Assembly: GCA_964541815.1 (NCBI GenBank)
Contig: CAZIRI010000002.1
Coordinates: 21,074-68,496, forward strand
Reading direction: 5' to 3'
Origin: an uncultured Lachnospiraceae bacterium
GTDB lineage: Bacteria > Bacillota > Clostridia > Christensenellales > UBA1242
Length of the DNA: 47,423 bases
The notes beneath the pieces are model-generated. The model saw nothing but the letters and a program-made list of their open reading frames with translations, ran no database searches and was not told the DNA's origin. This document shows positions 16,376 to 37,323 of this stretch, piece after piece (position 1 is the first letter of the stretch; each line of letters starts with the position of its first letter). A program made the translations under genes and the position numbers.

Positions 16376-17137
16376 TTATTTCATTGAAAAGATAGATTGA
16401 AGTTGTTCGATGTCACAATATGTTCTGACAAGTCTTTTTTCTCTTTGACTGAAAACTCCGTCTTCGCCAACAATATAAGAATCTATAAAATTGACTCCGC
16501 AAGTTTCGCAAAGATTTTTCACGATATCAAAAGCCGACCAATCGCTCTGTGATGGTGTTGCCTTGCCATAGGGATGACAATGTGCAATCACAAAGCCCAC
16601 AGGTTTTGATGTTGTAAGAAAGTTTGTAAGTTCCATAACTGAAATCCCAACTTGTCCAGAATTGTTCATTGTAAGTCTTCTTTTATGGGTGATAATATTT
16701 GCCGCACTTATCGCAAAAAGCAACATATTTTCAACCGTGCGAAAGCGGAGACAATCTTCCACAAGGTCGATGATATCTGCAACACGCTTCACGACCATTT
16801 TCTTTCCCATTTTGGAACTTGTGTAATAATAGAACAATTCTCCAAACATCTTGATTTTCTTTGCGGAACGCTCATTGATACCCTTCACAGACATCAGGTC
16901 ACAAATTTCCGCATCAATGATTTGTGTGAAGCACTCATATCTTTCAAGAAGTCGGTGAGCAAGCGGATTGACATCTCCACGAGGGAAAATGTAAGTCAAA
17001 AAATATTCAACAACTTGAATGTCGCTGACGTTGTCCACGCCAGCATTGACAATCAAATCAACAAGTCTTTCTCTATGCCCCTCATGTATGTTTTTCTCTT
17101 TTTTCACCGTTTTTTCTTTTTCATCTTTTGTTTTCAC
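16376..17137 (-). CDS. radC: RadC (UPF0758) protein with JAB/MPN domain
   Basis: N-terminal EGHRERL, HhH-like LMSVKGI, JAB motif AHCHPYGKATPSQSDW; GTG start with SD AAGGAG, 12 bp after the giant gene stop. Confidence 0.9.
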   Translation of the reverse strand: MKTKDEKEKTVKKEKNIHEGHRERLVDLIVNAGVDNVSDIQVVEYFLTYIFPRGDVNPLAHRLLERYECFTQIIDAEICDLMSVKGINERSAKKIKMFGELFYYYTSSKMGKKMVVKRVADIIDLVEDCLRFRTVENMLLFAISAANIITHKRRLTMNNSGQVGISVMELTNFLTTSKPVGFVIAHCHPYGKATPSQSDWSAFDIVKNLCETCGVNFIDSYIVGEDGVFSQREKRLVRTYCDIEQLQSIFSMK

Positions 17138-17149
17138 TTTTATCTCCTT

Positions 17150-20100
17150 TTATGAAGCCTGAATTGCATATCCAGCCTCGCCTGCGCCATTGAGAGTTTC
17201 TCCACTTGTCCAAGCAACCGTGCCATAGTGTTTTGCTGTATATTTTGCATAGAGTGCATTCTTGCTGGCGCTCATTGTGCTTGCAGAATAAACGTAGAAC
17301 GTTGAAACTTTCACAGAATTTCCAGTGCCGTTGTTTCCAGAAACCAACCCACAATTTGCCAGACTGCTTGGTGTACCCGTGATATTATTGTTTATTTCTG
17401 TTGTGTAGCCACATTCATTATCATCCACATGATAGCGACTATATACATCATGCCTTGCACTCCACCAAACTTTGTCCAATGTTGTATTCCATTGAGTGAA
17501 GTTTGCGATTGTTGCCCCATTTGCAATGGCAGCACAATATTTCGTGAATTTTTTATTATTGTTTGCTTCATTCTTTGTTTCGCTGTAAGCACTGCTACCG
17601 CCGTCACTACCTCTGCTAGCAGTTTGTTCTGCATCACTATTGCTTCCTGCTGTTCCGCCATTTGCAGAAGAATAGAATTTATCATTATCACTGTCAACAA
17701 TTCCAACGGAACCTGCTCCACCGTTTCCGCCATATTGATTTGTGAATGATGATATATAACTGCCACTTGTCACTGCTTTCCCAGCATGTCCGCCAGCACC
17801 GCCACCTTTGGCGACACCACTAAATGTGCCATTTGCACCGTCACCGCCGTATCCAGGGATAGAATCATATCCCTCATGCGAAATCAAAGTGTCACCATCG
17901 ACATTTCCGCCAGCATAGCCATCATCACCATTTCCACCATCTTCTCCATTATTAGTGCCCTGCGTTCCATTTTTACCCTTGATTGAACTTCCTGCAATCA
18001 AGATGTCGGCAGTTGTCGGTGTCGTGTTTGCTTTGAGCGTTGTCGTGATTCCGCCAGTTGTTGACAATCCAACCATGGTCACATAACTTGAAATACTGCT
18101 TGTTGTTTCACTTTCTCCAATTTCTCCAATCGTGTAAATTGTTCCATGTCCACCATGGATATTTCTCATTGTTCCATAGAATGAAATATTTGTCAGTGTG
18201 CTTGTATCGTTTGTTGTGGTGAGCATTGAATAATTTGTGAAAGTCGCTGTGTCAGAGTCATTCACTTGTGCAACAACAATTGTGTCCTTTATAAACGAGC
18301 CAGAGCCAGTTGTTCCCTTGCCCAAGACTGAACCTGAATTTGTTGAAGTGATGAAATTCATTGCAAATCCCTGACCAACAATTGAACTTGGAATGCTGTC
18401 AATTTTTGTGTCCCTCATCGCAATGTCATGTCCCAAAATCAAAATGCCAACTGAATTAGCGCTTTCGCTATCTCCTGCTGTTCCTGAATAAGATTGTGTT
18501 GTGCTTGTGTAGACTTTGTATGAGAACTCATTTCCCTTGCTTGATGTCGCTGTCATTTCCACTTTATCAGTTGTTTCATATGATGTTGTTGTTCCGCCAA
18601 TTGACACTTCAACTTTTGTGACATTCGACACTTTTTTTCCAATTGACTTTTCTATTGACTTTTCTAGTGTAGCATAATCATTTGTGTTTCCGCAAGTGAT
18701 TTTTCCATTGAAGACTTTTTGAATTGTTAATTTTTCACTCGTCCATAGACTCGTCTTCAATTGTGAATAATTTGAATTGACTTGATCCACAATGCAACTT
18801 TTATCCAATATTGCAAAAGCATTCACACCGACCGCAATTGCCTTATAATTTGACGCATCCAATAAATATGAATTTGTCGCTTTTGCAGCATATCCATCAA
18901 TATTTCCATTTTCATCTTTAGCTCCCACAAATTCTGTCCCACTGGCAATTAAATTGTAGAAATTTTCAGTCACATTGTAAGCCTCTCCGCTTCCAGTCAC
19001 TTCCAATTGATAGTAAGTATATGTCTCCGTGCCTTCATTTGCTGTTTTCTCCACAGCATAGACTTTCTTGTTGTAATTTGTGCCTATGTCGCCATTCAAC
19101 TTCAAATTGTTTCCATCAACTGTTGCAGATAGTGTGGTTGTTATCGTGCCATCTTTGTTAACCGTCACAACAGAACCATCAGTTATTATATTATTTCCCC
19201 CTGTTGCCCCATAGAATCCAGAGTTGTCGTAGGTATAACTTGTTGTTATTGAACCATCTTTTTCTGTCACTTGAATTGTCACGCTTCCCCTATCATTTGT
19301 GAACAAACCACTTGACCCTGAGAGGTTGTCTTTATCTATTGCTTTTCCGCTTTCATCAACATATTGCATTGTTGTTGTGGTCACGGAAATATTTCCGCCC
19401 GCATATGTCGATGTCGTGTCATTTGGTGAGATTGTTGTGATACAAGTCTTATCCGCTGAAATGCTTCCGCCTCTGATATATACTTGTTTGTTTCCACCAC
19501 TTTTATCACTAACTTCAATCAAATAACCATTGTCTGAATTTCCATTGATGATGTAATACTTGTAAGCATACTTAAATTCATATTCCCCAGAGCCAAGGCC
19601 ACTGTCAGTCATCACTTCATTTGATGATATTCTTGTCAACTTATCTACACTCTTCCATGTGCTACCAGAATTATACATCAATTCAGGCTCTACACAGATA
19701 ATTTTATTGTATGTGGTGGTTCTTTCTTCTGTATAATTATCTCCCGTCACTGACACTTCATTTGGATAATAGAATTTATCAAGTCCTGACAAAGCCCCGC
19801 TCAATGTTGAAGTAGAAGCGTCATATGTGAAGAAGTTGACAACAAAGTTCCCATTTACAATCGTCCCCGTCAATGAATTTGCTGTTCCAACCACTTTCCA
19901 AGTCGTCTTATTATCCAAACTTGTGATTGTCAAACTATTGTTTTGAATTGCATTATACACACTTTCAGACACCTTGTATGTTGTGTCAGTTTCGCTTCCA
20001 GCAGTCACTGCCAATTGATAGTAAGTATATTCACTCTCCTTGCCTTCATTTGCTGTTTTCTCCACAGCATAGACTGTTTGGTCATATGCCCCGTCTTCAA

Positions 20101-23100
20101 CATATTGTCCACCTTCAGTCGTCACATTCCAAGTGCCATTTTCTATTTCCGCAAGGAGTTTGAATGCTCCCGCTTTCAGTGTCAATCTGTCCACCGTGAT
20201 GTCAGAACCATTTGTGAAGACATATTTTGATGTCCCTTTACTTACTTTCTCGATAAGTTCGCTTATCGTGATTGAATCTTCACTCAATGAAACCTTTTTT
20301 TCAGCATAGTTCTGTGCCGTCAATGTGAATGAATCACCAATTGTCTTGAATATGAAATTTTCTGTTGATGACAACGAGATTACCTCTCCACTTGATATTC
20401 CATTTCCAACATACACATCTTTTTGCTCGTTTTTTGTGCTTGATGTGCTTATATTGATTGTCCATGAGTCATTATTTTTCAAGTTTTCTATTATGTTAGA
20501 ATATTCGATTTTCACGCACTTATCATGACTATCACATGTGCAAATTTTATTGTTGGTGCTATTATATATTGTCGTCCCGCCCAACACAACCGATGTGATT
20601 GTGTCGTTTTTGGTCAAGGTCACAGATTCTTCGCTCAAATCAAGGTGAAGATATCCGTTGTTTTCATCATATGTCAAATTGTTTTTATATGCAGTGCCAC
20701 TTCCCGAAATCACATCATTCATTGTGCAAGTGAATGTTGGAGTTGTTGTTTGCTTTTCTGTGTAATAGAATGTCGCACTCACAATTGATGTTGTTTTATC
20801 ACCATTTGCTGTTGCGGTTATCTCATTTATCATCACAACATTGAACAAATCTCCACTTGAAACGCCAAAACTCAACTTGTCTCTTGAAACTTCTCCGTCA
20901 AACTTAAATTCTGCTGTGTATGTGTATGGATAAAGCGAAATCAACACACCGTCACGATTTTTTGCAATGCTTGCGGTTGTCCCGTTGATTGTGAAGTGTT
21001 CAAAGCCATCATCATCATTTATTTCGTTGTTTATTGCGTCATCGATTTCTTGCAATTTGTCATTCAAGTCGTTTTCTTTATATCCGCTCGCTGTGACAAA
21101 TTTTGTGCCGTTTCCTGCACTCATTTTGTTGAGATAACTCAAAATTGAATCATATCCATTATATTCATTTTCTTTCGCATCATTTCCAAGCCATGCCTTG
21201 TAGTTGATTGAGCCGAGAATTGAAGAACTTGGATACGTCAAGTCTTGCTTAAGTCCGTCACTTATATATGCTGTTCCAGTTGTCCCTCCAATACTATGGA
21301 ATTTTGTTGATTCGGAATATTTCCCCTTATCATTAAGCGTATATTTCCCATACAAGTTTGTGCTTCCTTCGTTTATTCCTAATACAGCCGTCAAATCTTT
21401 ATAAAGTGGATTTGTGGTCGTCAAACTTCGAGTCATTGTGTCTGTCGCATACAATCGAAGTGGGAAGCCATATGAATCGTATGCCGAAATTGTGCAACCT
21501 ATTTTACCTTTTATACTCTCCTTATCCCCCGATGTAAATGTCTCAGCATGAACACTTGACACAAATTTCGCTTCATAGTCACCACCATTTTGTTGTGCCA
21601 ACTCCGCTTTTCGAGCAAATGTCAAAGTGCTTGTCACAGAAATTTCACCGACATTCCCTTGATTTAGAATATTGTTGTCAGAAGAGGTGTTTGATGAGTC
21701 TATCACATCGGCACTTTCACTATATCCAATTCCATAGGCGTTGACAAGTCTGTTTGAGCCTGAATTGTATGTCATTGTGATAGTGTATTCCAAATCATCC
21801 GGCTCTGTTGTCGCAATCTCTATTTTTGCTGTGCCACTTGTCGCTACTGTGATTTTATAACTTCCGCTCTTTGCACCCAAAGCCTGAACCGCTCCGCCAT
21901 TCGTGCAAGAAGAGACAGTCCCGCTCTGTGCATATCCAACAATTCCGCCCGCATAGTTGTATCCAGTGGATGAAGTCATTCCAGAGCCGACAAGCCCTGC
22001 ATTGTCACAAGATTTGATTGAGCCACCAATCATATATCCGACAATTCCGCCTGAGATTGAATTTTTTGTCTTGCCAGCCCCAGAATAATTTGCAAGAATT
22101 GAGTTTGAATTGTATGAGTTTGAAATTGCCCCATCATCCATTTGTCCGACAATTCCGCCCGCAATTGCATTGATTGAAGCGGTGACAACATTATTATCTT
22201 TTGTGACAAAAGTCATTGGAGCATCACTATTAAGTTTTGTCACCTTGATTGAAAGTCCTGTCCTTGTGCTAGAACTATCCGTCAAAATCACTCTTCCATT
22301 GTTTGTGAGATGGTCAATCACCCCTATTTTTCCTCCGTCCCTGCCGTTCACCTCGCCAAACAAACCGCCGACAATTCCGCCCTGTGTCGCCGTCACATTG
22401 ACAACCGCCTCAATATATGATGCGTTTCCTTGCAATGTCTTCGCAATTCCGCCCGCAAGTGTTTTTGTTGTTGTCAAAGAACCTGTCACTGTGAGATTTG
22501 TCAAATCTCCCTCGATTGTCTCTGCCAAAATTCCACTTGCTCCACTGACATTCAAACCAGAGATTCGAAGATTTGAAATATTTCCTGTCAATACATTGAA
22601 AAGTGCAGAAGATTTAATTTCCGTGAATGAAATTGTGTGATTTTGCCCGTCCAAATTGAGCGAAACAGTTTGATTCCAAGTCAAATTGTCGCCTTTGATA
22701 TCATATCTCAATGTGGTTGAAATTTGAGGGTTTGAGACATTCTTTGCATAAGAAATGATTTGATTGAGTTTGCTTGCTGACAAAATTTCATAATATGCAT
22801 CCGATATTTCTTTATATGTCCCGTCTTCATTCACCAAATCGCTGTAAGCAAATTTTTCAAAAGTCTCTGTCGTTTCTCCTTTTTCGTCTGTCGTTTTAAC
22901 AAATCTGTATGTCGTCACATTTTTCAGATATCCAAATCCATGTGAAGCATATCCATAATTTGTGTGTTTTGAATAATACCAATTATTTTCCGTGGCATAA
23001 GAAGTGGTATCCTTTTTAATGCCAAAGCCCTTTATGCTAACAATTTTTTCATTGTCATATCCAACTGCAAAGTCGTTTCCATCATATTTTTTCACTATGC

Positions 23101-26100
23101 TTATTGCAGTAGTGTCTTGTGAAGCGTCAATCACACTTCCCAAAATGTTTACGCTGTTTCCAACAACAAATTTCTTTTCGCTTGAACAATTTCCGCTCCC
23201 CAAAGCGTTGATATCTTCAATTTGTGTGATTGAATAACAATCTTCAATGTCATTTTTTGTGTTTCCAATTGATTTTCCTGAATACACAAAAGTTGCGACA
23301 GGGGCATCAACATATCTCAAAATTTTTCCAGATGAATATGTCGCTTTGATTGTTGTTTGACCATTCCAAACATTTGCAATGCCAGAAACAACTGATTGAT
23401 ATGAATTTTTATTATTATCTACTTTATCTGGACCCGCTCTGAAAATGATATCCGCATCGACATAACACTCATTCACAAAGCCGTCTTCCATATCACCAAT
23501 CATGCCCGCAAGTCGAACATATTGTCCAGCCTCTTTGCCACCAACGGACAATTTGCCTTCCACACCAACGCCATAGATAAATGTATGTCCAGAAGTTTTC
23601 CCGACAATTCCGCCAAAATTAACAATACTTCCATCATATTTAACATCAACAGCAATGTCCAAATCAAAGACAACACCTGAAATTCCAGAGAAATGCGCCT
23701 CTATCTTATTCTCATCCGCTGTGCCAAGTTCGTTCACAAATCCGCCAATAAAGTGTTTGTTTGTATAGAAGTCTTTATCTGTGTCATTTCCCTTGACTTT
23801 CACAGTTTGCCCATTGCCAACAAACATAACATCTTTCAGATTGTTGTCAATGTTGTTTGTCCATTCAGTCTCATTCAAATTTATCCATGTGATGCCATGT
23901 GAATTGCCAACCGTCTTCGCATTAACAGCCGTTTTATAACTTGAATAACCTTGATATGGGTTGATTTTTGCCCCAGAAACACCACTTATTGAAGAAAATT
24001 TTGCAAGAATATTTTCTGTTTTCTTTGTGCTATATCCATCAAAACCGCCTGAAACATATCCCACATCAAAATTTTCGTTCTCATATTGATATGCCATACA
24101 AACACTCGAATTGTAGTAGTTTTCACTGCAACTCACCTTGTCCGCATTTTGTCCAACAATCGCACCAATATGGTCATTCGTCGTTGCGGTCACATCATTT
24201 GAAGATTGAGTAGTTGACACCCTATCATTAAAGTTTGTCAAAAGTGAATAGCAACCATTGATATTGATTGTTTGACTAGCGTTGTTTTCGTTGCCTGATG
24301 ATATATTGACATTTCCAACAATTCCACCAAAGATATATTGAGATAATCTGTCAGCAGAGTTTTGCCCATACATAATCATGACATCACCATAGGCATAACA
24401 TTTTGAAATCGTGAAGCCATTTGAGGAACCAACTTGTCCAATCACACCGCCAACGGTCAACTGCCCACCATTCAAGGCTTCACCAAAGACTTTCAATGCA
24501 CCGCCATAATAAATGTTTGAAAGTCCAGTATCAGAAGATAAGTTTACCCCATTTCCAACGGCACCACCAAAGACAATTTCTGAAGAATCAACAATAGTGA
24601 TTCCGTTGTATTCACAAAGCGCACTGCCATTGCATGTGAAACCAACACCTTGAGCATTTCCAACAACACCGCCAATGTGTGCTGTTGTTGTCGTTGTTGT
24701 CGTTGTTGTTGCTTTTGCATAGATATTCAAGTTGTTGACAACATTTGCACTGATTCCAATCCTTGTGTCTTGTGCCGTTCCAATCATTCCACCAGCATAA
24801 GCATTTGCAGTTGTTTTTTCATTTGCAGTTGTTTTTGCGAAAACACCCCCGTCAATTTGCAAATTTCCAGAGAATGAGATTGTCCCGCCGACACTTTCGC
24901 CAACAACACCGCCGACATAAAGGTTTGTGCTCTCAAATGAATATTTATCCAAGTCATAATTTTCTTGATTTTTGTCAAATTCTTCCAAGGTTTCTGTGAC
25001 AACACTGTTTGTGGTATTCCCGACAATCAAATCAATTAGAATTCCATTCACAGAGACCGTTGCTGAATTTGTTTTTCCAACAATTCCACCAATATCCGCA
25101 TTTGTGACAGAATTGCCCTCACTCAAAATCTTTCCAACGATTTTTGCACCCGTATATTGAGATTTGAGTTCCATTGTCGCATTTCCAAGTTCCCCAAAAA
25201 TCAAGCCCGCATAAGCATTTGCACAGCCACCAACAACAATCGTCATGCCTTTTGCGTCAGCCGTTTCATCCGCCTTTGCAGAATATGATGCAGATGAGAT
25301 GACCGCTTTTCCAGCCACTCCACCAATACAAGCATTTCCACCAATACAATCATTTTTATTACTGCTTGCCTTGATTGTGACATTTTCAATTTGTGGAATT
25401 TCCAAGCCAATTGGAACATTGTATTCTTCTTGAGAAATCAAGCCTGCATACAGTCCCGCATACAATTTTGAATCGTCAGTTTTTAGCTTTGCCGAAATTA
25501 CGACGTTCAACTTCAATTTTGCTTCAGAATTGTTGTAAACCCCAAAATTGATATCTGAAATAACAACATTTGTGTATGAATTTGTTTCATGAATCTGTCC
25601 CGCAATCAAGCCCGCATAAGCCATTTGTTCATTGCCAGTTCCAACATTCATTGTCACTGTTGTTGCGCCTGAATCATTTGAACTTACTTTCCACAAGAAA
25701 TTGACTGTTTCAAAGGATGTTGACAATGCATCAGGAACAAACAGCCCTGCACTTGAAGCACCACCGCTTGTCACTCCATTCATAGTCACATCGCCACCAT
25801 AGACAACATCAACCTTTCTTATGATTGAAGTTATAGCCCTGTCAGCAATCACACTGCGTGAGATATTGACATTCATATAAATTGGCACACCTTGAATTGT
25901 TGCTCCTTCAAGCGAATTGAACAAAGATGACCCATTCAAAATAATCCCAACTGGAGAACTTGAACTTTGACCACCCGTTCCTTCTTTATTGATTTGGAAT
26001 GAATAAGCATTCTTTTGAATCCCCATATATTCATTATAGCCCAACAATTTTCCTTTGAAAGTCAATTCAGAGAATTTGACCCCATTGTAGTTATAGGTGC

Positions 26101-29100: not shown

Positions 29101-32100
29101 AATTTGTGATTGAAGAACTGTTTGTCATAACAAAGCCCGCAATGCTATACTCTTTATCCATTTGAGTTGTCAGTATAACGCTGTCTGATTTTCCTTTTGT
29201 GTATGTGACAACAAGCCCATTCTCTGTGCCGTCAGAAAATTGACTGCTGTTGTTTTGCAATCCGTCATAGAAGGACACAACTTGACAGTTGTATATAATC
29301 CCCTCATTTGAAAGAGCAAAGCCCGCAATATTTGCCGTGCTGTATTGACTCACATCAATTGCTATTTGTCCACCATTATATATATTGACAGTCACATTTT
29401 TCAGTGTCGTGTTTTCAGCAACACTGTCAAAAAGAGCCAAATTCAAAATTTCTCCACTTTGTGAAGCAAAACTATCCAAATAAATCACATAACCATTTCC
29501 GTCAAACGAATTGATGTTGTCCGTGCTTATTGGCGTGTAATTTTGAAGAACAATATCATTCACAAGCATATAGTCACCAGCAGTTTCCCCGCTTGCCATC
29601 GCAACAAAGTCTTCTGCCGTTGCAATTTGTGTTGGAGTGTCTTCATCAGTCCAAACTTCAACCACAATCACAAAGTAATATTCATAAACAAACTTAACCC
29701 CTTGCGAAACAACAACTGTTTCAAGTTTCATCAATTGTGTTCCCGCTCTTTTACCTGTCACTTGAAGTTCTGTGTAAGGTGTTGAATCCAAACTGTTTTC
29801 AGACTGTTTCAATGTGAAATAGTTGTTTGAAACAATCTCACCATTTCTGTCAACAGCAACCGCACTTGACTCACTTGTCGCATACCAAAGTCTGTCAACC
29901 AAAGTCAATTCTTTTGCACTTCCCGTCATCGAATCAACATCATAATTGATATAATATCCAACTTTGTCGTCTTTATAGTAGCCATTCAAAGCAAAACTTT
30001 GTCGATTTTTGTTGAGTTCGTCCACCGCTTCCTTTTGACTTGTGTTTGTGTAGACATAATTATATTCTTCTGGAACAAGTGGATAATCAAAAGACAATGA
30101 AGATGTCTCGCCAATATAAACATAATATCTGTCATAATTCTTGCCATTGTAGGTCGCTGTTCCGCTTTTTGTGGTCAACGAAATATTGTCAGCATCAACA
30201 GAAAAATCAACAAGACAAACTGTTGCCTGTGTTGTTTTTATTTCTTCAATGCCCGCAACAACATTCTTCACCGATGCACACACATAGAAAATTCCGCTTG
30301 AAACGCTTTCGTCAATACTTTCACCCACAAGAGTTGCATCAACAAGAGCAGTCAAAGTCGCTGTGTATATCTTTTGTGTTCCAACAATTTCATAAGTTGG
30401 AGTTGTCAAGAAAATGTTTGATTTGTTGTTGACAAGATACATATTATCCAAAGATTGGTCAGCGTCAACAGTGATTGTCACTGTCGCAGAGTCACCCTTT
30501 GCAAGAATGCAAGTTGTGTCACCATTAACAAGAACGGTCGCTTCTCCTTTGAAATCAACTGCAAAGTTATAACTTCCGCTCCAAGCCAATTCTTTTCCGT
30601 TGTAGCAAGAAAGTGTCAATTTGACAGAACTTTTTGAAGCAAAAGTGCTTGAAACATACATTCTGAAATAGAACACCCCGTCACCTTGCTTATCTGTGTC
30701 AGTAAGGTCAACTCGAATGCCCGAGCCATCACTCAATGCAGAAGAATTTTTTTGGTCATAATAGAATCCAAATCTTGAATCGTTTACCAATCTTGTGAAA
30801 TTCACAATGCCAACGGATTCTCCCGTTGCTTCATAAGTCAATGTGAAATGCGTCAAATTTGCATAAACAGGGTCAAGCACAACCGAAACAATTCCTTCAC
30901 TTGCAGGACTGAATGTGCTTACAACCTTATTTTCAGTGTTGTAATACAAAACTGAATCTCTCAAATATCTGTTTGTTATTCCATAAGTCAAAATCGTTGT
31001 GTCTTCAATGTTTTGAACTTGCACACTCAAATCAACGGTTTTCAACATTGAAGTGTTTTGTGATTGACTCTTTGCATTGACAATCAAAGTCAAATCGTCA
31101 TAGTCATGAGTTATTTTATGCTTTGAATTTTCAGCAACTTTCACCAAAACATTAAAGCGATATACTCCACTGCTCACAGAAGTTTTTGTCCATGAAACAT
31201 CAAGCGTCAAATCATTGTCCACAACAAAACTCTTGCTTGTTTCCGAGCCTGTTGGAGCCAATTCAACATCGCCATATTTCAAACCAACAACAAGATTGTC
31301 ATCTTCACTGTCAGTCGTCATCACAGCAACAAAACTTGCATATTGAGAAGCCTTGACAACCAAACTGTTTGCATTTTCAAGCACCAAAGACTTTGCTCCG
31401 TCATAAGAAACAACATTGAATATCCTTGTTATTGCTTGTCCGATTGATTTTTCAACAAATTGAATGAAAGTTGTTTCAACTTTCGTTCCCGTGCCAGTTT
31501 GAACTGTGGTAGTTTCACCCATTATTTTATCATCGTTTAAGTCAACATAAACATATGACTTCACTTTTGAAGAAGATTTCTCCCCGTGTGCTTTGTTTGC
31601 TTGAAGAAGCAGTCTTGACCCTTCTTCACTTGCTGTCACATATTCATTTTCTTCGTCATAAGTGTTGTCAGAGAGTTCACACGAAACATTGTAATTTTCT
31701 TTTGAAAGAATGTATGAAGATGAGCCGTCACCCAAAGAAATACTGTTTGTTGTTCCATAATGAACAGTCTTGATATTATTCACTCCTGTTTGAACATACA
31801 AAGACACGCCGTCATCAAACTCAACACCGTCAACCCTTGTCGATAGTTCTGGTAAAGAGTAGACAACAACAAATTTGAATGTTTTTGTCTTTGAAAAATC
31901 GGTCTTTGAATGAACAACAATATCAAACTCTGAAACATTTCTTGATAATAGTTTGATTGAATCCGCCGTCAATGAAACATTTGAACTGCCAGTTGTCAAA
32001 ACAACACTTTTTGCTTCTTTGTCAGTCAAATTCAACATATTTTTGATTGAAATTGTGTTGAATCTTTCAAGTTGTGTCTTTTCAGTTGCATCCGCAAGTG

Positions 32101-35100
32101 AAGTTGTTGTTTTGTAGAGCAAAAGCACTCCACCCAAACTCTCATTTTCTGAATTTTCAACAGACAAAACTTGTGAGTATTTTTCCCCCAAAGAGACATC
32201 ATAAATCGTCAAATCTTCAACATCAACTCTTTTCATTTGTTGTGTGTTTTTCAGGTGCAAAAGTCCAAAGTTGACATTTTTGTCAAATGAAGATGAGTTT
32301 TCAGCGTCAATTTCCCAAACACTCGCATCAACCTTGACACCACCATCAACATTGATTTTTGTGTCACCTGTGATTGTTGTCACTTTTTCTGATGTTGCAT
32401 TTTTCCCTATATATGCATTCATTGTCACAGTTTCCACATCATTATTCACAGTTTTTTCTGTCACATAACAATTATACAAGTTAACAACATAACTCTTGCC
32501 CTCTTCATTTATTCCAGTTATTACAACTTGTGAAACATTCCCCAAATAAGCAAAGCATTCTTTGAATGTAATTCCCCCGACACTTGAATAACCAACAAAT
32601 GCGCAAACATTGCCACATGAAATGATTTTTTCACTATCAGGGTCATTCTCGCTTGCAAATGAATATATATAAGAATTGTTTATTGCTCCAACACCAGAAA
32701 TATCATATCCAATAATTCCACCAAAATATGACGTCTTTTCATCACCCACTTTCACGGTGATTTTGTTGTTTGAAGCATTCGAAAATTTGTAAAATTCAAA
32801 TCCACAATTTGCGATTTTGCTATTATGCAAACTCTCTTCAGTTCCTTCAATGTTTGTTGCTCCCACAATTCCGCCAACATAAGCATTTGAAGAAGATGTC
32901 ACATCAATTGAAACGCCATAAGCATAACAATTCAAAATTTCTCCCGCATTGTTGCCTGCAAAAGCACCGACATATATGTCTGTGTCAGCACTTTCACAAG
33001 AGAGTTTACTGCTCTTATAGTCGCTTGAATTTCCATTTTCATAATAGACATCAATCACACAATTTTCAATTACACCCGTTTCACAAACATTGTTTGCAAC
33101 AAAGCCCGAAAATTGAGAATTTGTTGAAGAAACCTCTCCAACAAAAGTGATATTGTCAATCGTTCCTTTCAAATTGTTGACAAATGCTTGACTTCCGTTT
33201 GTAAATTTCAATGTTCGAGTTTCGTCAGCAAAAATTTCTCCCGAAAATTCATTATAAGATTTCCAACCATCCAAAGTGATGTCGTTCACGATTTTGTAGG
33301 TGTAGGTTGTCACAATAGATTCAAGTTCGTCTTGATTTGTCACTTGAATTGCAGTTTCTCTGCTCTTTCCGTCCGCAATAGTGACAATAATTCTTTTTAT
33401 CACACTTGAATTCAAAACTTTTTCTTGTGCATCGTTGCGGAAGTAATTCAAATAATCACCTTCCCCGTTCACAATTTTGCTGTAATCATTTGCAAATGTT
33501 TGCCAATCCAAATAATCGGCAACCTCAACCGTTTGACCATTGCTGTCAACGGCTTTCTTATAAACCAAAATCTTTTCCGTTCCACCATTGATTTTCAGCA
33601 TATCCTTTGGCAAAACAAACAAATATCCATATCCGCCGTCATCGTTCGCAGTTCCGCTTATGCTCAAAGTCAAAATTTTTCCACCATTTCTTGAATCGAT
33701 ATTCAAAATGCTTGAAGCACCAGAAAGTGTGATAAATTTTGACACCAAATCAGTTGAATAAGCATTTGATGGAGAAACGCTCATTGAAACAACAAATTGC
33801 TTGTCTTTTGCATTGAGCGACTTCAAATTCAAATAAATCTTGTCGTCACTTGTTTGATTGTTCCAAGAGACTTTTTCAACTCTGTCCATGTTCTTTATTT
33901 CAAAACTTATTTGGGCGACTTTTTCAAACTTAACTTGTCTGTTGACACCCATATTTTGAGTCGTTGAATATTTCACCATCAACACATCACAAACAGGTGA
34001 CATTTGCCCATTTGTTGATTTTGCAGTCACACCAAATGTGATGTATCCACCAACAATATCAATCCCTGCGATTGTGTAATATGAATTTTCAAGATTTTCA
34101 TTAAGTTCTTCAAGATTTGACTCAAAAGAGATATCTTCCTTTGTCAAATATGTTGGAACAGAACGGTCAGTTCTTGTCGTTATTTTGACTGAAACAAAGG
34201 CCTTATCAGCATCCGCAGAACTCAAAGTTTCGCTTGTATACAAAACCTCTGATTTCACATTTGATGAGAATTGTTCAACATCATAGAAACTTTCAAGCAC
34301 AAAGAATCTTATCAAACTTTTACTCTCATGATTTTCATCGTATCCATTGAATGTGACCGCAATCAAATCTCTAAACTCTGCATTTGAAACAACAATTTTT
34401 TCGTCATTCATCACAAAACGAGTTTGTTCACTGTCAAGCAAATAGTTATACAAAGTGGAAATATCGGCAAGAGAAACAAGTGATTTATTTTCCCCCTCTC
34501 CGATATAACATTTCGCAATTTCGTCATCAGAATATTTCAAGCAACTGCGAATGAATGTGTCAGAATTCATTCCAGAGAAAACAGCATAATCAAAGATTGC
34601 TGACAATTGAACTTTCAATGCATCATCATTTGTTGCGACACCACTGTTTGAAGTTTTCAAAGCGCTTGTCACACTGTCCCTGTCGCCAAGTTCCGTCAAA
34701 TAAGAGATTGTATATTGATTTTCTTTGTCCAAGGTTGCTTTTTGAGTGTCAAAAGAGACAAGTGCAGTTGTCCCCGCTTCAATCATGATTTTTGCAATTG
34801 AATTTGCCGAATTGGAACCGTCAATTTCAATCTCGCCGTCACCCTTGACAAAGCCTTGCTCGCAATAAGAAGACAAGACATTGCTTGCGGAACCGTCCGC
34901 ATTCTTCACAGAAGCAGTCTGCAAAGGAATGAACGATTCAATATTAAACGAATTTGACGACTTGCCAACAACATGATAGAATCCAAAAGTTGACACACCC
35001 TCAAAGTTTATCGCATCAAGACTCACCGTCAAGCCAACAACAATAAATTTCCCCTCATCATTATCCTGACTTTTTAACAAGGATATTGGAGAATATTCAA

Positions 35101-36787
35101 AATTGCTGTTGCCACTGCTCACGAGAGAAAGTCCAGCAATTGCAGTGATTCCGTCAATTTTCAACTTAAAATCTTTTGTTCTTGTCGAATTTTTACTTGA
35201 AGAAATGTAAGTTGTGGCATCTTCAAGTTCAACCGCATTGCCCTCATCATCAATAATGGAAACATTTAGACTTTCTTCATCAATATCAACTTCATACAAA
35301 TTGAAATAAATTTTTGTTCTTGCAGAATTTGGACTGCTGACTGAAACAAATTCAAATTCAATGCCACTCAATGATGCGGAAGCACTCCCAACTGAAACAT
35401 ACACTTTTGAGCCAACAGTGATTTCTTCGCTTTTTCCATTTTCATCAAATGTCAAAAATTTGTTGTTGCACCAAAATTTCACAGTTTCATCGCCAACATC
35501 CTTGTTGTTTCTTTGAATGTAGCAAGAATAACTGTCAAGCGAAACATCAGTAGGTGTGATTGAATATCCAATGCAATACCCATGACCATTTTGATATGCC
35601 GAATTTGAGAAAATATCAATCGTTTGATTGTTTATGTTTTCATTTTTTTCATTGAGCAAATCAACCCTTTCAGCAACATAACAAGTCTCAATCAAAATCA
35701 AAGATTTGTCCTGTGTTGTTATGTCATAGTTATAGCCCTTGTAATGCACATCGAGATAAAATTCAAAATCGCCAAAAAGCCTGTTCGCTCTTTCGTTGTT
35801 GTATGCGTCAACAGCGAAAGTGTAGACCTTTTCACTTGAAGAATCTGTTGTGGCAGATTCGACCGTGTATGTGAAATATTTTTGATTTGTCACACTGATA
35901 GAAACTTTTTCCTTTCCACTTCTCATTTGAATGATTGGGAGAAATTCAACTTCACAATTTGAGTCAACCGTCAAAGCCCCCGTCAGTTTTGAACGGCCAG
36001 TGTCATTTCTCTTCAAAGACACTGACACAGACTCACCCTCAACACCAGCACCAATCAAAGTTTTGTCACCGTTTTCAGTTCCAATCACAAAACTTTTGAT
36101 TGTGGAATTGTTGAGAACGGCAAGTTCAACGCTCTTTGTTATTTGAGAGTTTTCAGTGTAGGTTGCAACAACAGTCACACTGCCCAGTGCATATTCATCA
36201 GAAACGGACAACACTCCATTTTCGATTTTTGCACCACTAACTTCACTCTCCAAAGACCATTCAACATCAACAATGTTTGCTGTCACAGGTTCGAAAGTGA
36301 AGAAATCTTCAAAAGCGAGATTTTTGTCAACACCTTTCACAACAAAATTGTTTGAATCTCCATTTGGAAGATTTTTGTTCAAATCACTGAAACTTTCAAC
36401 ACCCGTGTAGACTTTCACAGAGATAAGTTCAAATTGAGAAGAGTCTTCAAGAGAAGAAACTTTCACGATTGCGTCACCACTGCTCTTGTCTTCGGCTGTC
36501 CTTATGTTGAACGCATATTTGTTGTTCGCCTTTCTTTTTGTCGTGTATGTATTTTCCAAAGTCACACACTGCCCAGACACGCATTCAACAACAATTCCAA
36601 GATCCGAATTTTTGACATTGACCTCGACTTCACTCACCTGATAATCCTTGTCAGACACCTCATAGTTTGAAGTAAGTTCCACACTTTGCGTCGAAACAGA
36701 AAGCGACACTTTCTTGTCACAAGCCGTGAGAGTCACTCCGCCGAGCATCATCAAAATTCCCACAAAAATATATGCAATTTTTTTCAT
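17150..36787 (-). CDS. Giant 6545 aa surface lipoprotein (Ig-like stalk segments, about six GLUG/beta-helix modules, Gly-rich linker, C-terminal tip)
   Basis: Uninterrupted 19,638 bp ORF; SD GGGAGG; lipobox LTA-C; more than 20 [YIV]xGG[IV]VG (GLUG-like) motifs; module headers such as PTQIATAEDF...YMLVNDIVL...FDGNGYVI and NPIIIRSAEDF...YRLVHDIDL...FSGIFDGNGFAI; no C-terminal TM helix, LPxTG or SLH motif seen. Confidence 0.92.
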   Translation of the reverse strand: MKKIAYIFVGILMMLGGVTLTACDKKVSLSVSTQSVELTSNYEVSDKDYQVSEVEVNVKNSDLGIVVECVSGQCVTLENTYTTKRKANNKYAFNIRTAEDKSSGDAIVKVSSLEDSSQFELISVKVYTGVESFSDLNKNLPNGDSNNFVVKGVDKNLAFEDFFTFEPVTANIVDVEWSLESEVSGAKIENGVLSVSDEYALGSVTVVATYTENSQITKSVELAVLNNSTIKSFVIGTENGDKTLIGAGVEGESVSVSLKRNDTGRSKLTGALTVDSNCEVEFLPIIQMRSGKEKVSISVTNQKYFTYTVESATTDSSSEKVYTFAVDAYNNERANRLFGDFEFYLDVHYKGYNYDITTQDKSLILIETCYVAERVDLLNEKNENINNQTIDIFSNSAYQNGHGYCIGYSITPTDVSLDSYSCYIQRNNKDVGDETVKFWCNNKFLTFDENGKSEEITVGSKVYVSVGSASASLSGIEFEFVSVSSPNSARTKIYFNLYEVDIDEESLNVSIIDDEGNAVELEDATTYISSSKNSTRTKDFKLKIDGITAIAGLSLVSSGNSNFEYSPISLLKSQDNDEGKFIVVGLTVSLDAINFEGVSTFGFYHVVGKSSNSFNIESFIPLQTASVKNADGSASNVLSSYCEQGFVKGDGEIEIDGSNSANSIAKIMIEAGTTALVSFDTQKATLDKENQYTISYLTELGDRDSVTSALKTSNSGVATNDDALKVQLSAIFDYAVFSGMNSDTFIRSCLKYSDDEIAKCYIGEGENKSLVSLADISTLYNYLLDSEQTRFVMNDEKIVVSNAEFRDLIAVTFNGYDENHESKSLIRFFVLESFYDVEQFSSNVKSEVLYTSETLSSADADKAFVSVKITTRTDRSVPTYLTKEDISFESNLEELNENLENSYYTIAGIDIVGGYITFGVTAKSTNGQMSPVCDVLMVKYSTTQNMGVNRQVKFEKVAQISFEIKNMDRVEKVSWNNQTSDDKIYLNLKSLNAKDKQFVVSMSVSPSNAYSTDLVSKFITLSGASSILNIDSRNGGKILTLSISGTANDDGGYGYLFVLPKDMLKINGGTEKILVYKKAVDSNGQTVEVADYLDWQTFANDYSKIVNGEGDYLNYFRNDAQEKVLNSSVIKRIIVTIADGKSRETAIQVTNQDELESIVTTYTYKIVNDITLDGWKSYNEFSGEIFADETRTLKFTNGSQAFVNNLKGTIDNITFVGEVSSTNSQFSGFVANNVCETGVIENCVIDVYYENGNSSDYKSSKLSCESADTDIYVGAFAGNNAGEILNCYAYGVSIDVTSSSNAYVGGIVGATNIEGTEESLHNSKIANCGFEFYKFSNASNNKITVKVGDEKTSYFGGIIGYDISGVGAINNSYIYSFASENDPDSEKIISCGNVCAFVGYSSVGGITFKECFAYLGNVSQVVITGINEEGKSYVVNLYNCYVTEKTVNNDVETVTMNAYIGKNATSEKVTTITGDTKINVDGGVKVDASVWEIDAENSSSFDKNVNFGLLHLKNTQQMKRVDVEDLTIYDVSLGEKYSQVLSVENSENESLGGVLLLYKTTTSLADATEKTQLERFNTISIKNMLNLTDKEAKSVVLTTGSSNVSLTADSIKLLSRNVSEFDIVVHSKTDFSKTKTFKFVVVYSLPELSTRVDGVEFDDGVSLYVQTGVNNIKTVHYGTTNSISLGDGSSSYILSKENYNVSCELSDNTYDEENEYVTASEEGSRLLLQANKAHGEKSSSKVKSYVYVDLNDDKIMGETTTVQTGTGTKVETTFIQFVEKSIGQAITRIFNVVSYDGAKSLVLENANSLVVKASQYASFVAVMTTDSEDDNLVVGLKYGDVELAPTGSETSKSFVVDNDLTLDVSWTKTSVSSGVYRFNVLVKVAENSKHKITHDYDDLTLIVNAKSQSQNTSMLKTVDLSVQVQNIEDTTILTYGITNRYLRDSVLYYNTENKVVSTFSPASEGIVSVVLDPVYANLTHFTLTYEATGESVGIVNFTRLVNDSRFGFYYDQKNSSALSDGSGIRVDLTDTDKQGDGVFYFRMYVSSTFASKSSVKLTLSCYNGKELAWSGSYNFAVDFKGEATVLVNGDTTCILAKGDSATVTITVDADQSLDNMYLVNNKSNIFLTTPTYEIVGTQKIYTATLTALVDATLVGESIDESVSSGIFYVCASVKNVVAGIEEIKTTQATVCLVDFSVDADNISLTTKSGTATYNGKNYDRYYVYIGETSSLSFDYPLVPEEYNYVYTNTSQKEAVDELNKNRQSFALNGYYKDDKVGYYINYDVDSMTGSAKELTLVDRLWYATSESSAVAVDRNGEIVSNNYFTLKQSENSLDSTPYTELQVTGKRAGTQLMKLETVVVSQGVKFVYEYYFVIVVEVWTDEDTPTQIATAEDFVAMASGETAGDYMLVNDIVLQNYTPISTDNINSFDGNGYVIYLDSFASQSGEILNLALFDSVAENTTLKNVTVNIYNGGQIAIDVSQYSTANIAGFALSNEGIIYNCQVVSFYDGLQNNSSQFSDGTENGLVVTYTKGKSDSVILTTQMDKEYSIAGFVMTNSSSITNCRVGGDSLKYIDNIAGTDYVNSIDLGTFTISGQGNIAGFVYQNDGSVSASFVKDVQITNKMEYNASQTAGFVLTNNGDIQTSYVEGVKGTQTSEEVIVHNNVTNIKSAGIVAGFVYENANLVKNSYANIAIEKTENKAFMVAGFVYQNDDTGTVTLCYSACEIDSSDIGEMQFSGIDGSENSLNNGTISNSYFYHESRVDDTIQSKMASGATALHDVDDMDSFYGFSFASDDGDYNGIWKMTTNGIALVSANEIAISNRCVVAGDDETYKVFYNRNIRDAKTLSYVDLTYGSDSNPIIIRSAEDFAKAMGNAGTTEISSYKSYYSDTEVFGNYRLVHDIDLSEIQQNAESSSTLKLTTMSKTFSGIFDGNGFAIQNISLAGSSSDEDFGLFARLSDAVIMGVDLTVDSVHNSQAMIVGVLAGTATDSRIISVSLAPTENSETGNVFVQGNNIVGGVVGIFMGESVMSDIHIENMQVFSVYYSSKTKTAVDSNKMRTLSSSLDSGASLKDVAGTISYAGAVAGYVDVYSSGSENYIKFSSNIEMSDCSILSVRVSDSIEVYAEVAGGIFGYVGKNTLVYDATLTLDADMALSNQSHIISKNLYAGGLVGENYGGLFAVSASYEESLQEVIESNEHAFYNGSTSVEKGQQSIFSYTTNDTGYAENINNPLFIGGLVGYMGGGYINIGYNKLNVISHGSNTVAVGGIVGVVGYTSNDYKLSITTDECYVGVTLYGVYSSGDVEILSNDGVSDRVASGIVGAMEIIADEKGVGSNATKLCIKDAMALNYLTNLKDSEGNLTNVTNGVSSTHALLIGTLYAVDKKDSSIRYSNENRSLSSSIYLLNTLNDIVIDLKVGGEFNGDESGSKTVGGYTKYTINKTDVNINICGFGSGNYNYRTTQSDCVLEAQFIGDSSMSTMSYAFSRMYKYFLMNGWEEKYWVHDTGSLFPEINLTPRNDVIYWDAYTESTDDVFKCIQEGKKVTIVVRGLTSDDDNCNTVKDIDLSTYNYNGVKFSELTFKGKLLGYNEYMGIQKNAYSFQINKEGTGGQSSSSPVGIILNGSSLFNSLEGATIQGVPIYMNVNISRSVIADRAITSIIRKVDVVYGGDVTMNGVTSGGASSAGLFVPDALSTSFETVNFLWKVSSNDSGATTVTMNVGTGNEQMAYAGLIAGQIHETNSYTNVVISDINFGVYNNSEAKLKLNVVISAKLKTDDSKLYAGLYAGLISQEEYNVPIGLEIPQIENVTIKASSNKNDCIGGNACIGGVAGKAVISSASYSAKADETADAKGMTIVVGGCANAYAGLIFGELGNATMELKSQYTGAKIVGKILSEGNSVTNADIGGIVGKTNSATVSVNGILIDLIVGNTTNSVVTETLEEFDKNQENYDLDKYSFESTNLYVGGVVGESVGGTISFSGNLQIDGGVFAKTTANEKTTANAYAGGMIGTAQDTRIGISANVVNNLNIYAKATTTTTTTTTAHIGGVVGNAQGVGFTCNGSALCEYNGITIVDSSEIVFGGAVGNGVNLSSDTGLSNIYYGGALKVFGEALNGGQLTVGGVIGQVGSSNGFTISKCYAYGDVMIMYGQNSADRLSQYIFGGIVGNVNISSGNENNASQTININGCYSLLTNFNDRVSTTQSSNDVTATTNDHIGAIVGQNADKVSCSENYYNSSVCMAYQYENENFDVGYVSGGFDGYSTKKTENILAKFSSISGVSGAKINPYQGYSSYKTAVNAKTVGNSHGITWINLNETEWTNNIDNNLKDVMFVGNGQTVKVKGNDTDKDFYTNKHFIGGFVNELGTADENKIEAHFSGISGVVFDLDIAVDVKYDGSIVNFGGIVGKTSGHTFIYGVGVEGKLSVGGKEAGQYVRLAGMIGDMEDGFVNECYVDADIIFRAGPDKVDNNKNSYQSVVSGIANVWNGQTTIKATYSSGKILRYVDAPVATFVYSGKSIGNTKNDIEDCYSITQIEDINALGSGNCSSEKKFVVGNSVNILGSVIDASQDTTAISIVKKYDGNDFAVGYDNEKIVSIKGFGIKKDTTSYATENNWYYSKHTNYGYASHGFGYLKNVTTYRFVKTTDEKGETTETFEKFAYSDLVNEDGTYKEISDAYYEILSASKLNQIISYAKNVSNPQISTTLRYDIKGDNLTWNQTVSLNLDGQNHTISFTEIKSSALFNVLTGNISNLRISGLNVSGASGILAETIEGDLTNLTVTGSLTTTKTLAGGIAKTLQGNASYIEAVVNVTATQGGIVGGLFGEVNGRDGGKIGVIDHLTNNGRVILTDSSSTRTGLSIKVTKLNSDAPMTFVTKDNNVVTASINAIAGGIVGQMDDGAISNSYNSNSILANYSGAGKTKNSISGGIVGYMIGGSIKSCDNAGLVGSGMTSSTGYNYAGGIVGYAQSGTVSSCTNGGAVQALGAKSGSYKITVATSGTAKIEIATTEPDDLEYTITMTYNSGSNRLVNAYGIGYSESADVIDSSNTSSDNNILNQGNVGEISVTSTLTFARKAELAQQNGGDYEAKFVSSVHAETFTSGDKESIKGKIGCTISAYDSYGFPLRLYATDTMTRSLTTTNPLYKDLTAVLGINEGSTNLYGKYTLNDKGKYSESTKFHSIGGTTGTAYISDGLKQDLTYPSSSILGSINYKAWLGNDAKENEYNGYDSILSYLNKMSAGNGTKFVTASGYKENDLNDKLQEIDDAINNEINDDDGFEHFTINGTTASIAKNRDGVLISLYPYTYTAEFKFDGEVSRDKLSFGVSSGDLFNVVMINEITATANGDKTTSIVSATFYYTEKQTTTPTFTCTMNDVISGSGTAYKNNLTYDENNGYLHLDLSEESVTLTKNDTITSVVLGGTTIYNSTNNKICTCDSHDKCVKIEYSNIIENLKNNDSWTINISTSSTKNEQKDVYVGNGISSGEVISLSSTENFIFKTIGDSFTLTAQNYAEKKVSLSEDSITISELIEKVSKGTSKYVFTNGSDITVDRLTLKAGAFKLLAEIENGTWNVTTEGGQYVEDGAYDQTVYAVEKTANEGKESEYTYYQLAVTAGSETDTTYKVSESVYNAIQNNSLTITSLDNKTTWKVVGTANSLTGTIVNGNFVVNFFTYDASTSTLSGALSGLDKFYYPNEVSVTGDNYTEERTTTYNKIICVEPELMYNSGSTWKSVDKLTRISSNEVMTDSGLGSGEYEFKYAYKYYIINGNSDNGYLIEVSDKSGGNKQVYIRGGSISADKTCITTISPNDTTSTYAGGNISVTTTTMQYVDESGKAIDKDNLSGSSGLFTNDRGSVTIQVTEKDGSITTSYTYDNSGFYGATGGNNIITDGSVVTVNKDGTITTTLSATVDGNNLKLNGDIGTNYNKKVYAVEKTANEGTETYTYYQLEVTGSGEAYNVTENFYNLIASGTEFVGAKDENGNIDGYAAKATNSYLLDASNYKAIAVGVNAFAILDKSCIVDQVNSNYSQLKTSLWTSEKLTIQKVFNGKITCGNTNDYATLEKSIEKSIGKKVSNVTKVEVSIGGTTTSYETTDKVEMTATSSKGNEFSYKVYTSTTQSYSGTAGDSESANSVGILILGHDIAMRDTKIDSIPSSIVGQGFAMNFITSTNSGSVLGKGTTGSGSFIKDTIVVAQVNDSDTATFTNYSMLTTTNDTSTLTNISFYGTMRNIHGGHGTIYTIGEIGESETTSSISSYVTMVGLSTTGGITTTLKANTTPTTADILIAGSSIKGKNGTQGTNNGEDGGNGDDGYAGGNVDGDTLISHEGYDSIPGYGGDGANGTFSGVAKGGGAGGHAGKAVTSGSYISSFTNQYGGNGGAGSVGIVDSDNDKFYSSANGGTAGSNSDAEQTASRGSDGGSSAYSETKNEANNNKKFTKYCAAIANGATIANFTQWNTTLDKVWWSARHDVYSRYHVDDNECGYTTEINNNITGTPSSLANCGLVSGNNGTGNSVKVSTFYVYSASTMSASKNALYAKYTAKHYGTVAWTSGETLNGAGEAGYAIQAS
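18994..20075 (-). repeat. Dispersed in-gene duplication (copies at 18994-19064 and 20002-20075)
   Basis: 35 bp identical (tgccttcatttgctgttttctccacagcatagact at 19030 and 20041) plus an adjacent 28/29 bp match (18994 vs 20002); encodes VYAVEKTANEG..YTYYQL.VT twice. Confidence 0.9.
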
Positions 36788-36836
36788 CGTTTGTCCCTCC
36801 CAAAAGAAGACATAATCTCTTTTTGCTTATATAAAT

Positions 36837-36866
36837 ATTATATATAAAATACACAAATAAAGTCAA
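36837..36866 (-). promoter_or_regulatory. SigA-type promoter of the giant lipoprotein gene
   Basis: TTGACT (36866-36861), 18 bp, TATAAT (36842-36837); a second TTGACA lies just upstream. Confidence 0.7.
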
Positions 36867-37305: not shown

Positions 37306-37323
37306 AAATTCCTCCCACACAAA

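Follow-up and report, generated by a model that had tools for sequence, protein, structure and literature searches.

The 47,423-nucleotide stretch of contig CAZIRI010000002.1 analysed here (the window), from an uncultured bacterium placed in UBA1242 (Christensenellales), carries a 19.6 kb gene for a giant protein of 6,545 amino acids. From its sequence and from structural models this protein is probably a very long surface fibre, anchored by a lipid at its N-terminus and ending in a variable binding tip, with attachment as its most likely role. Its building blocks are known, while for the assembly itself (about 6,500 residues, lipid-anchored, combining six helices of the GLUG type with a single confirmed Ig-like stalk and a variable end of about 1,500 residues, and conserved across an uncultured clade of reduced genomes) no description was found in the literature.

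Following Sec export and lipidation on Cys23, the N-terminus alone would tether the protein to the outer leaflet of the cytoplasmic membrane. The first 5,000 or so residues would constitute a shaft, made up of the N-terminal region, a GLUG-type right-handed beta-helix, some five to six Ig-like domains and five more beta-helices. Judging from typical domain dimensions this shaft may be of the order of 100–200 nm long, and its role could be mechanical: it would keep the final ~1,500 residues at a distance from the cell, where this distal part may bind a host ligand, a mucus component or a partner cell.

A sequence-only reading of the window had described the gene as one intact open reading frame (ORF), and the translation, which has no internal stop, bears this out. 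G+C content is 35–40% along the gene and similar in the flanks; an ORF of such length at about 37% G+C cannot have arisen by chance. A chimeric assembly, against which that reading had advised a check, was rejected since the 90% identity cluster holds eight full-length versions of 6,535–6,545 residues from separate ENA/NCBI assemblies (contigs up to 254 kb). One cluster member is 100% identical to the protein in the window, and the order of genes around the giant gene is the same on ten contigs. Self-BLAST of the protein revealed no recent internal repeats except one motif of 47 residues, and the DNA of the ORF contains neither near-identical internal repeats nor tandem repeats able to drive phase variation. 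The only simple repeat in the ORF is an in-frame (ACA/ACG)9 at 24683–24711 (minus strand), which specifies nine threonines (residues 4027–4035) in the fourth beta-helix module.

The N-terminus, MKKIAYIFVGILMMLGGVTLTAC followed by DKK, comprises MKK, a hydrophobic core and the lipobox LTAC, and by the lipobox criterion the giant protein is a predicted lipoprotein and substrate of Lgt/LspA. Of 149 family representatives, 128 keep a lipobox ([LVI][ASTVI][GAS]C). Since three other ORFs nearby (o911, o602 and o221) have lipoboxes of their own, the organism probably uses the lipoprotein pathway. The signal peptide is the only Kyte-Doolittle window above 1.6 in the whole protein, and a motif scan found no HExxH, LPxTG or NPxTG. 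The lipoprotein anchor, the anchoring by the N-terminus only, and the absence of HExxH and sortase motifs noted earlier by eye were all upheld by these scans. A sortase-anchored adhesin of the MSCRAMM or serine-rich repeat protein (SRRP) type was rejected, there being no LPxTG/NPxTG and no C-terminal hydrophobic segment; an RTX adhesin was rejected too. The protein has no RTX repeat array, and GGxGxD occurs only once.

To delimit the modules (Table 1) the protein was cut into regions, BLAST-guided family alignments of 69–133 sequences each were made, and their profiles were compared by hhalign. The profiles of beta-helix modules M1, M2, M3 and M6 match mutually at 94–98.6%, headers included, with the M2–M3 pair lower at 87%; for M4 and M5 the match is to M3 or M6, at 88–96%, and confined to the coil region. 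The proposal of about six related beta-helix modules is thereby confirmed at six homologous ones, each diverged in sequence from the others. Their headers, for which positions had also been proposed, were all located (residues 1146, 2390, 2856, 3546, 4296 and 4679), those of M1, M2, M3 and M6 being clear and those of M4 and M5 weak. M2 holds exactly the six repeats expected of it, of the form [AS]GF[VAG] (residues 2488, 2550, 2599, 2631, 2674 and 2704). The 25 occurrences of [GA]G[IVLMF][IVALF][GA] all lie between residues 1305 and 4947 and within the six modules, and M4 has nine GG-h-h-G motifs. The modules do not alternate with stalks, as had been claimed, since M2 to M6 lie back to back over some 2,600 residues. 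Profiles of the stalk regions match neither the beta-helix modules nor one another, and that of residues 24–1135 gave no significant match to the Ig-like domains of stalk 2 (at most 36% probability).

These modules are, on profile evidence, diverged GLUG-type beta-helices, M2 being an AGF coil variant. A search with the M2 profile retrieved a 742-residue protein (P0168) with six canonical GLUG motifs at 138 bits; hhalign aligned the two over 245 columns, header included (98.3%, E=2.5e-14), placing AGFV..N.G.I over GGLVG.N.G.I. Taken together, the homology of the modules to one another and to the canonical GLUG protein is put at 92–98.6% by hhalign. The Pfam Glug model (PF07581) reached 17.6 bits against a cut-off of 20.5 (E=0.0052) at residues ~4942–4967, within M6, when a 760-residue piece was scanned, and gave no match when the protein was scanned in halves of 3,500 residues. 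The suggestion of GLUG-like modules thus holds as homology to a bona fide GLUG protein and fails as membership of PF07581. Among 13 family sequences scanned over the stretch spanning M1 and the following stalk, Pfam Glug was detected in three.

Apart from this sub-threshold Glug, scans of the halves and the 760-residue pieces against Pfam, NCBIfam and PHROG returned nothing. The same libraries gave no match for three shorter relatives and a single, chance-level match (Trypsin_2) for M2 of 19 relatives. Pfam, NCBIfam and motif scans of the giant protein revealed no M26 peptidase, G5, sortase, SLH, two-partner secretion (TPS), autotransporter or toxin domain. PDB sequence searches with profiles A2 and A4 and with C-terminal pieces gave nothing above chance and no match to an IgA1 protease chain. 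Identification as a Zmp/M26 IgA1 protease was rejected on the lack of Peptidase_M26, G5 and HExxH, and as an autotransporter or TPS haemagglutinin-like protein on the lack of any Pfam/NCBIfam match and on a genomic context that is that of Clostridia.

Domain-wise structure prediction with AlphaFold2 (AF2) followed by Foldseek, a check that the sequence-only reading had recommended, was run for residues 1136–2335 and 2351–3500 and found Ig-like and beta-helix modules. For residues 2351–3500 (4 sequences in the alignment) the mean predicted local distance difference test score (pLDDT) was 48.9; within this model M2 (residues ~2381–2760) has a pLDDT of 70–93 and a short-strand solenoid pattern, and M3 is of low confidence. 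Foldseek against the PDB placed Streptococcus pneumoniae IgA1 protease at the top of the M2 matches (6xja/6xjb/7uvl; E=7.7e-4, prob 1.0), together with 3n6z, the Bacteroides ovatus "putative IgA1 protease" BACOVA_03286 (prob 1.0, target TM-score 0.41), in line with the claimed relation to ZmpB/IgA1-protease helices. The beta-solenoid adhesins SRRP, Ag43 and PfbA came next, and generic pectate-lyase-fold enzymes and tailspikes lower down (E=0.04–0.9). For residues 1136–2335 (13 sequences) the mean pLDDT was 74.8: the first ~170 residues of M1 again show a short-strand solenoid pattern (pLDDT 78–93), and residues ~1515–2235 are all-beta (pLDDT 75–92). The models therefore indicate a right-handed parallel beta-helix for M2 and the start of M1, and profile homology points to the same fold for M3–M6. 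For stalk 2 Foldseek found 295 matches with E≤1e-3, headed by tandem Ig-like arrays: NUP210, titin I65–I70 (8e-11), the PrgB Ig-like domains (1e-9), DSCAM, cadherins and E. coli alpha-2-macroglobulin. Stalk 2 accordingly appears to consist of a small alpha/beta domain and some five to six Ig-like domains, and no Pfam Big_x family matched this stretch, M1 included, in the family sequences scanned. Support for Ig-like stalks, as first proposed, is thus confined to residues ~1515–2235, and the last ~1,500 residues form a region of their own.

The beta-helices, chiefly M2–M3, might alternatively make the protein a surface-tethered enzyme, acting as a polysaccharide lyase, glycosidase or depolymerase on mucin, glycans or the cell wall of a partner. 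Phage tailspikes and pectate-lyase-fold enzymes degrade polysaccharides by means of beta-helices. M2 and M3 are the most conserved part of the protein, M2 with 42.5% mean identity and 21.5% of columns at least 80% conserved and M3 with 37.5%, against 24–30% for the stalks, and Foldseek does list PL6 chondroitinase B, fucoidan lyase, GH28 and tailspikes, only at E=0.04–0.6. The invariant residues, however, are mostly Gly, Asn, Phe and Tyr and the Asp, Gly and Asn of the header, so that the conservation looks structural; no catalytic motif was found by motif scan, and no CAZy-type, peptidase or other enzyme-family match in the libraries. The best fold and profile matches are moreover GLUG-type helices (the N-terminal domain of IgA1 protease, 3n6z and P0168), and in the solved IgA1 protease this beta-helix gates the active site and is non-catalytic (PMC7695701). 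We consider an enzymatic role distinctly unlikely.

Beyond residue ~5100 the number of BLAST subjects covering the query drops from about 85 to 1–5. This separate, fast-diverging distal region, absent from the earlier description, is mostly 1,400–1,700 residues long across 88 relatives, and neither jackhmmer with C-terminal thirds among the 149 relatives nor PDB searches with C-terminal pieces found anything. Of 80 relatives, 52 have a glycine-rich window (≥25% Gly), whose median distance from the C-terminus is 275 residues. The alignments and lengths show a distal part of constant size and layout whose sequence is replaced quickly. It is therefore likely to be where the protein contacts a ligand, or else a surface that is pressed to vary. 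The 47-residue motif mentioned above, ..VYAVEKTANEG..YTYYQL.VT.., occurs twice in this region, at residues 5568–5614 and 5905–5947 (19947–20087 and 18948–19076, minus strand), the copies being ~340 residues apart with 60% identity.

Variation within the species was studied in seven strains of 97.8–100% identity, in which amino-acid differences are concentrated in residues 4750–6000. In a codon analysis of six ENA contigs against the window, all related strains picked by an identical adjacent RadC and giving small counts, the ratio of nonsynonymous to synonymous polymorphism (pN/pS) was 0.21 for residues 3217–4749 (16 synonymous and 15 nonsynonymous segregating sites) and 1.07 for residues 4750–5999 (14 and 39; Fisher's exact test between the two regions, p=0.033). 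Residues 6000–6545 (17150–18787, minus strand) have no synonymous and two nonsynonymous sites in the six strains, yet cannot be aligned between species; this near-invariance is probably due to the choice of contigs with identical neighbouring RadC, and a recent sweep may be another cause.

A conserved N-terminal shaft followed by a variable C-terminus is also the general layout of CdiA and Rhs proteins, and would suit a contact-dependent effector of the polymorphic toxin kind, delivering its C-terminus into neighbouring cells. Here, however, the variable part is some 1,500 residues of conserved length and no short swappable cassette, no discrete C-terminal types were seen among the relatives compared, the gene downstream is a conserved radC and not an immunity gene, and library scans found no toxin, pre-toxin or secretion-system domain. 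A CdiA/Rhs-like polymorphic toxin was rejected on the length of this end, the downstream radC and the lack of a toxin domain, and an effector role in general is hardly credible.

Drift of the distal sequence at a kept length would be expected, too, if bulk alone mattered or if the surface were pressed to vary, as in a coat or spacer whose many copies form a brush or S-layer-like barrier, giving distance or protection from phages, immune factors or enzymes with no specific ligand. The long architecture of rigid modules fits such a coat, as does the composition of the protein, which is strongly acidic (net charge about -300) with much Ser, Thr, Asn and Gly. Set against this, library scans found no SLH, cell-wall-binding or self-assembly domain, and the conserved glycine-rich segment, lying at a set distance from the C-terminal end, points to a distal domain of definite structure and not to filler; a coat is, in our judgement, rather unlikely. 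Adhesin, spacer and effector had all been put forward from the sequence and all remain conjectural, the last having lost ground for want of a toxin or immunity signature.

Three points weigh against a fibre that attaches by its tip. The most conserved modules, M2–M3, lie in the middle of the shaft and not at the tip, so the key activity could reside there and be other than passive support; the fold of M3–M6 is supported by a low-confidence model or by profile evidence only; and a pN/pS near 1, on small counts, is equally compatible with relaxed constraint and with diversifying selection.

When 1.84 billion cluster representatives were searched exhaustively by HMMER, a profile built from four sequences of residues 2351–3500 found 9,711 matches at E≤1e-3, of which 833 reach E≤1e-30. 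The best 150 are mostly proteins of 5,500–7,600 residues, matched at a like position (residues ~2,200–3,300), and colinear relatives make up at least 150 clusters at 50% identity. Word-indexed searches had returned four partial proteins from metagenome-assembled genomes (MAGs) for residues 2351–3500, one match for the M2 profile and none for residues 5001–6545; the impression of a rare or near-unique protein was rejected, as these searches under-reported a large family. BLAST against 149 relatives yields one colinear alignment from residue 1 to ~5,100–5,400, with 33–38% identity to the nearest clusters. In a scan of one genome per species, relatives were found in 119 GTDB species, the closest with about 50% identity in the query region. 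All 119 are represented by gut MAGs of uncultured bacteria, under the labels Clostridia, Christensenella, Christensenellaceae, Eubacteriales or Candidatus Onthoplasma, and the sources of relatives are mouse, rabbit, ruminant, human and other animal gut. Database records label the family proteins hypothetical, and literature searches covering Christensenellales giant proteins, GLUG motifs and giant genes brought no description of the family to light.

Some genomes hold two copies of giant-family genes (L055 and L068 in WRCD01000002.1; L006 and L079 in CAOJZM01), and in one of them, a Bacillota MAG, the two lie in tandem on one contig. A relative of ~27% identity on a 19.8 kb Logan contig from SRR10963010 (L001) is divided into three reading frames (979, 1,377 and more than 3,804 residues), through either pseudogenization or an assembly frameshift.

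Giant proteins that dominate a small genome are known from episymbionts, among them the SPEARE proteins of Nanohaloarchaeota and large proteins of Patescibacteria. The likeness lies in the very large share of a very small genome that a single surface protein takes up, in lineages with a proposed dependence on partners; the domains and the phylum are different, and for UBA1242 this dependence is only a proposal. Relatives of the giant gene are carried by MAGs KA0021_177 (JBKSMT, locus L033) and KY236-132 (JBKSNA, L060), which belong to UBA1242 and have genomes of 0.92 and 0.79 Mb (PMC12306168), so the large investment for a small genome, claimed from the sequence, is supported: in genomes of this size a 20-kb gene amounts to ~2–2.6% of the DNA. 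UBA1242 genomes measure ~0.7–1.6 Mb and are without most biosynthesis and standard transporters, the two MAGs also lacking ATP synthase, and dependence on a partner has been proposed for them (PMC12306168). Tentatively, and with considerable reserve, the family may be the attachment organelle of obligately partner-dependent, genome-reduced Clostridia (UBA1242 and relatives), with the role in Bacillota that giant surface proteins have in CPR (candidate phyla radiation) and DPANN episymbionts; its fast-evolving tip of ~1,500 residues would then set the partner cell or host surface to which each species attaches.

Among characterised systems, the GLUG helices of the S. pneumoniae M26 IgA1 protease (6xja/6xjb) and of BACOVA_03286 (3n6z) are of the same fold class and the best structural match. 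In common with the giant protein they have the cap/header I..a.eL....Y.L..DI.L....F.G.fDGNG..I and, by profile alignment to P0168, the coil GG-h-V-G..N.G.I. Unlike IgA1 protease, the giant protein lacks the M26 peptidase, G5 and HExxH and has six helices per chain instead of one; it further departs from that protease and from GLUG proteins in the AGFV coil variant of M2, in a Pfam Glug score below the cut-off and in a lipobox instead of an LPXTG-type anchor. The binding region of Lactobacillus reuteri SRRP (5nxk) and S. pneumoniae PfbA (4mr0), both among the fold matches of M2, also display a right-handed beta-helix on a Gram-positive surface, but as a single helix with a C-terminal sortase anchor, whereas the giant protein has no LPxTG and no serine-rich repeats and is about ten times as long. 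The Ig-like stalk of Enterococcus PrgB (8beg) shares the tandem Ig-like extender, with the presumed binding part at the far end.

Staphylococcus aureus Ebh and RTX adhesins such as MpIBP are, like PrgB, giant stalk-and-tip adhesins of this layout. Relative to all of these the orientation of the giant protein is reversed, the lipid anchor being N-terminal and the free end C-terminal, and it has neither an RTX repeat array nor near-identical internal DNA repeats.

As a conserved, syntenic gene of some 20 kb, the giant gene is a concrete candidate for the means by which reduced-genome gut Clostridia contact partners or their surroundings. The family is large and has neither a name nor a significant Pfam model, so that many gut MAGs would be better annotated once it is defined. 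These cells and their partners could also be sought by means of the protein, for instance with antibodies, fluorescent C-terminal domains or landmarks in cryo-ET (cryo-electron tomography).

Table 1. Features of the giant gene, its product and its immediate neighbours (window coordinates).
Feature	Residues	Position	Strand	Basis or description
Giant gene		17150..36787	-	ATG start, 6,545 codons, single terminal stop; 19.6 kb
Predicted lipoprotein signal peptide	1-23	36719..36787	-	Translation; lipobox LTAC at residues 20-23, Cys23 the predicted lipidated N-terminus
N-terminal region	24-1135	33383..36718	-	BLAST-colinear in family, 26-28% mean identity; no Pfam/PDB match
Beta-helix M1	1136-1510	32258..33382	-	Canonical cap/header; hhalign to M2 98.1%, M6 98.2%; AF2
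Stalk 2	1511-2385	29633..32257	-	Small alpha/beta domain, then ~5-6 Ig-like beta-sandwiches; AF2 and Foldseek
Beta-helix M2	2386-2845	28253..29632	-	Six AGF[VA]..N.G.I coils; AF2, Foldseek, profile match to P0168
Beta-helix M3 (predicted)	2846-3510	26258..28252	-	GG[IV]VG coils, canonical header; hhalign to M6 98.6%, M4 96.4%, M1 96.1%
Beta-helix M4 (predicted)	3511-4290	23918..26257	-	Weak header, T9 run; coil-only hhalign to M3 96.4%, M6 93.3%
Beta-helix M5 (predicted)	4291-4640	22868..23917	-	Weak header; coil-only hhalign to M6 92.2%, M3 88.7%, M2 85.6%
Beta-helix M6 (predicted)	4641-5010	21758..22867	-	Canonical header; hhalign to M3 98.6%, M1 98.2%; sub-threshold Glug
Distal C-terminal region	5011-6545	17153..21757	-	Length conserved in family, sequence not
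Glycine-rich segment	~6263-6400	17588..18001	-	32% Gly in 100-residue window
Sigma-70-like promoter		36837..36866	-	TTGACT-18-TATAAT (11/12); consensus scan and sequence
Ribosome-binding site		36795..36801	-	GGGAGGG, 7 nt before ATG; read from sequence
radC-like gene		16376..17137	-	12 nt 3' of the giant gene stop; Pfam RadC
spoIIID		37057-37365	-	Directly upstream of giant gene
M23 (SpoIIQ-like) peptidase gene		37690-38298	-	Upstream of giant gene, beside spoIIID

The giant gene is flanked by ordinary housekeeping genes of Clostridia on the same strand, in the order pth, mfd, MprF-like, M23, spoIIID, giant gene, radC, uvrB, uvrA and hflX. The order M23–SpoIIID–giant gene–RadC recurs in closer relatives, and the locus is a stable, vertically inherited part of the chromosomal core and no mobile element. 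No terminator-like site lies between the giant gene and radC, which are probably co-transcribed, and a strong terminator-like hairpin follows radC at 16348–16315. The 269-nt spacer 5' of the giant gene is A/T-rich. Of the SigA promoter and strong Shine-Dalgarno sequence ascribed to the gene, the latter is present; the former is a consensus match and no demonstration, since the number of promoter-like sites in the region equals that expected from shuffled sequence. Upstream of it, at 36989–37041, are four phased TGCAAAAAAA-like A-tracts with ~10–11 bp spacing, which may be curved DNA or a UP-like element.

The neighbours raise a further explanation, namely that the protein is part of a sporulation-associated structure (a spore appendage, an exosporium or a forespore-surface protein) under the control of the neighbouring SpoIIID. 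In the window spoIIID directly precedes the giant gene, with the SpoIIQ-like gene beside it; among 80 related loci, 29 have a SpoIIID homologue no more than ~3 kb upstream, facing either way. The M23–SpoIIID pair is an ancestral arrangement in Clostridia, however, so its position next to the giant gene may reflect history; several loci have SpoIIID on the opposite strand, and the promoter-like site matches the sigma-70 consensus of vegetative growth. Although UBA1242 MAGs unexpectedly retain sporulation genes (PMC12306168), we regard this explanation as very unlikely, and attachment by a lipid-anchored fibre as the preferred one.

Other ORFs of the window suggest that lipoproteins appear to be a major class of surface protein in this organism. 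The product of o911 (10530–13265, minus strand), situated between uvrA and uvrB, is a predicted lipoprotein of 911 residues with the lipobox LSAGC and one weak Big_3 domain; its length is kept at 910–916 residues in all strains examined, and BLAST showed no relation to the giant protein. Two more predicted lipoproteins, of 602 residues (40694–42502, minus strand; ...SMFAGC) and 221 residues (6000–6665, minus strand; ...SCGGC), are without a Pfam match. At 908–3613 (minus strand) is encoded a 901-residue protein with an N-terminal membrane segment and a P-loop ATPase domain of the TraG/VirB4/HerA type, which could belong to a conjugation-like or cell-to-cell transfer apparatus and would be of interest if the lineage is partner-dependent.

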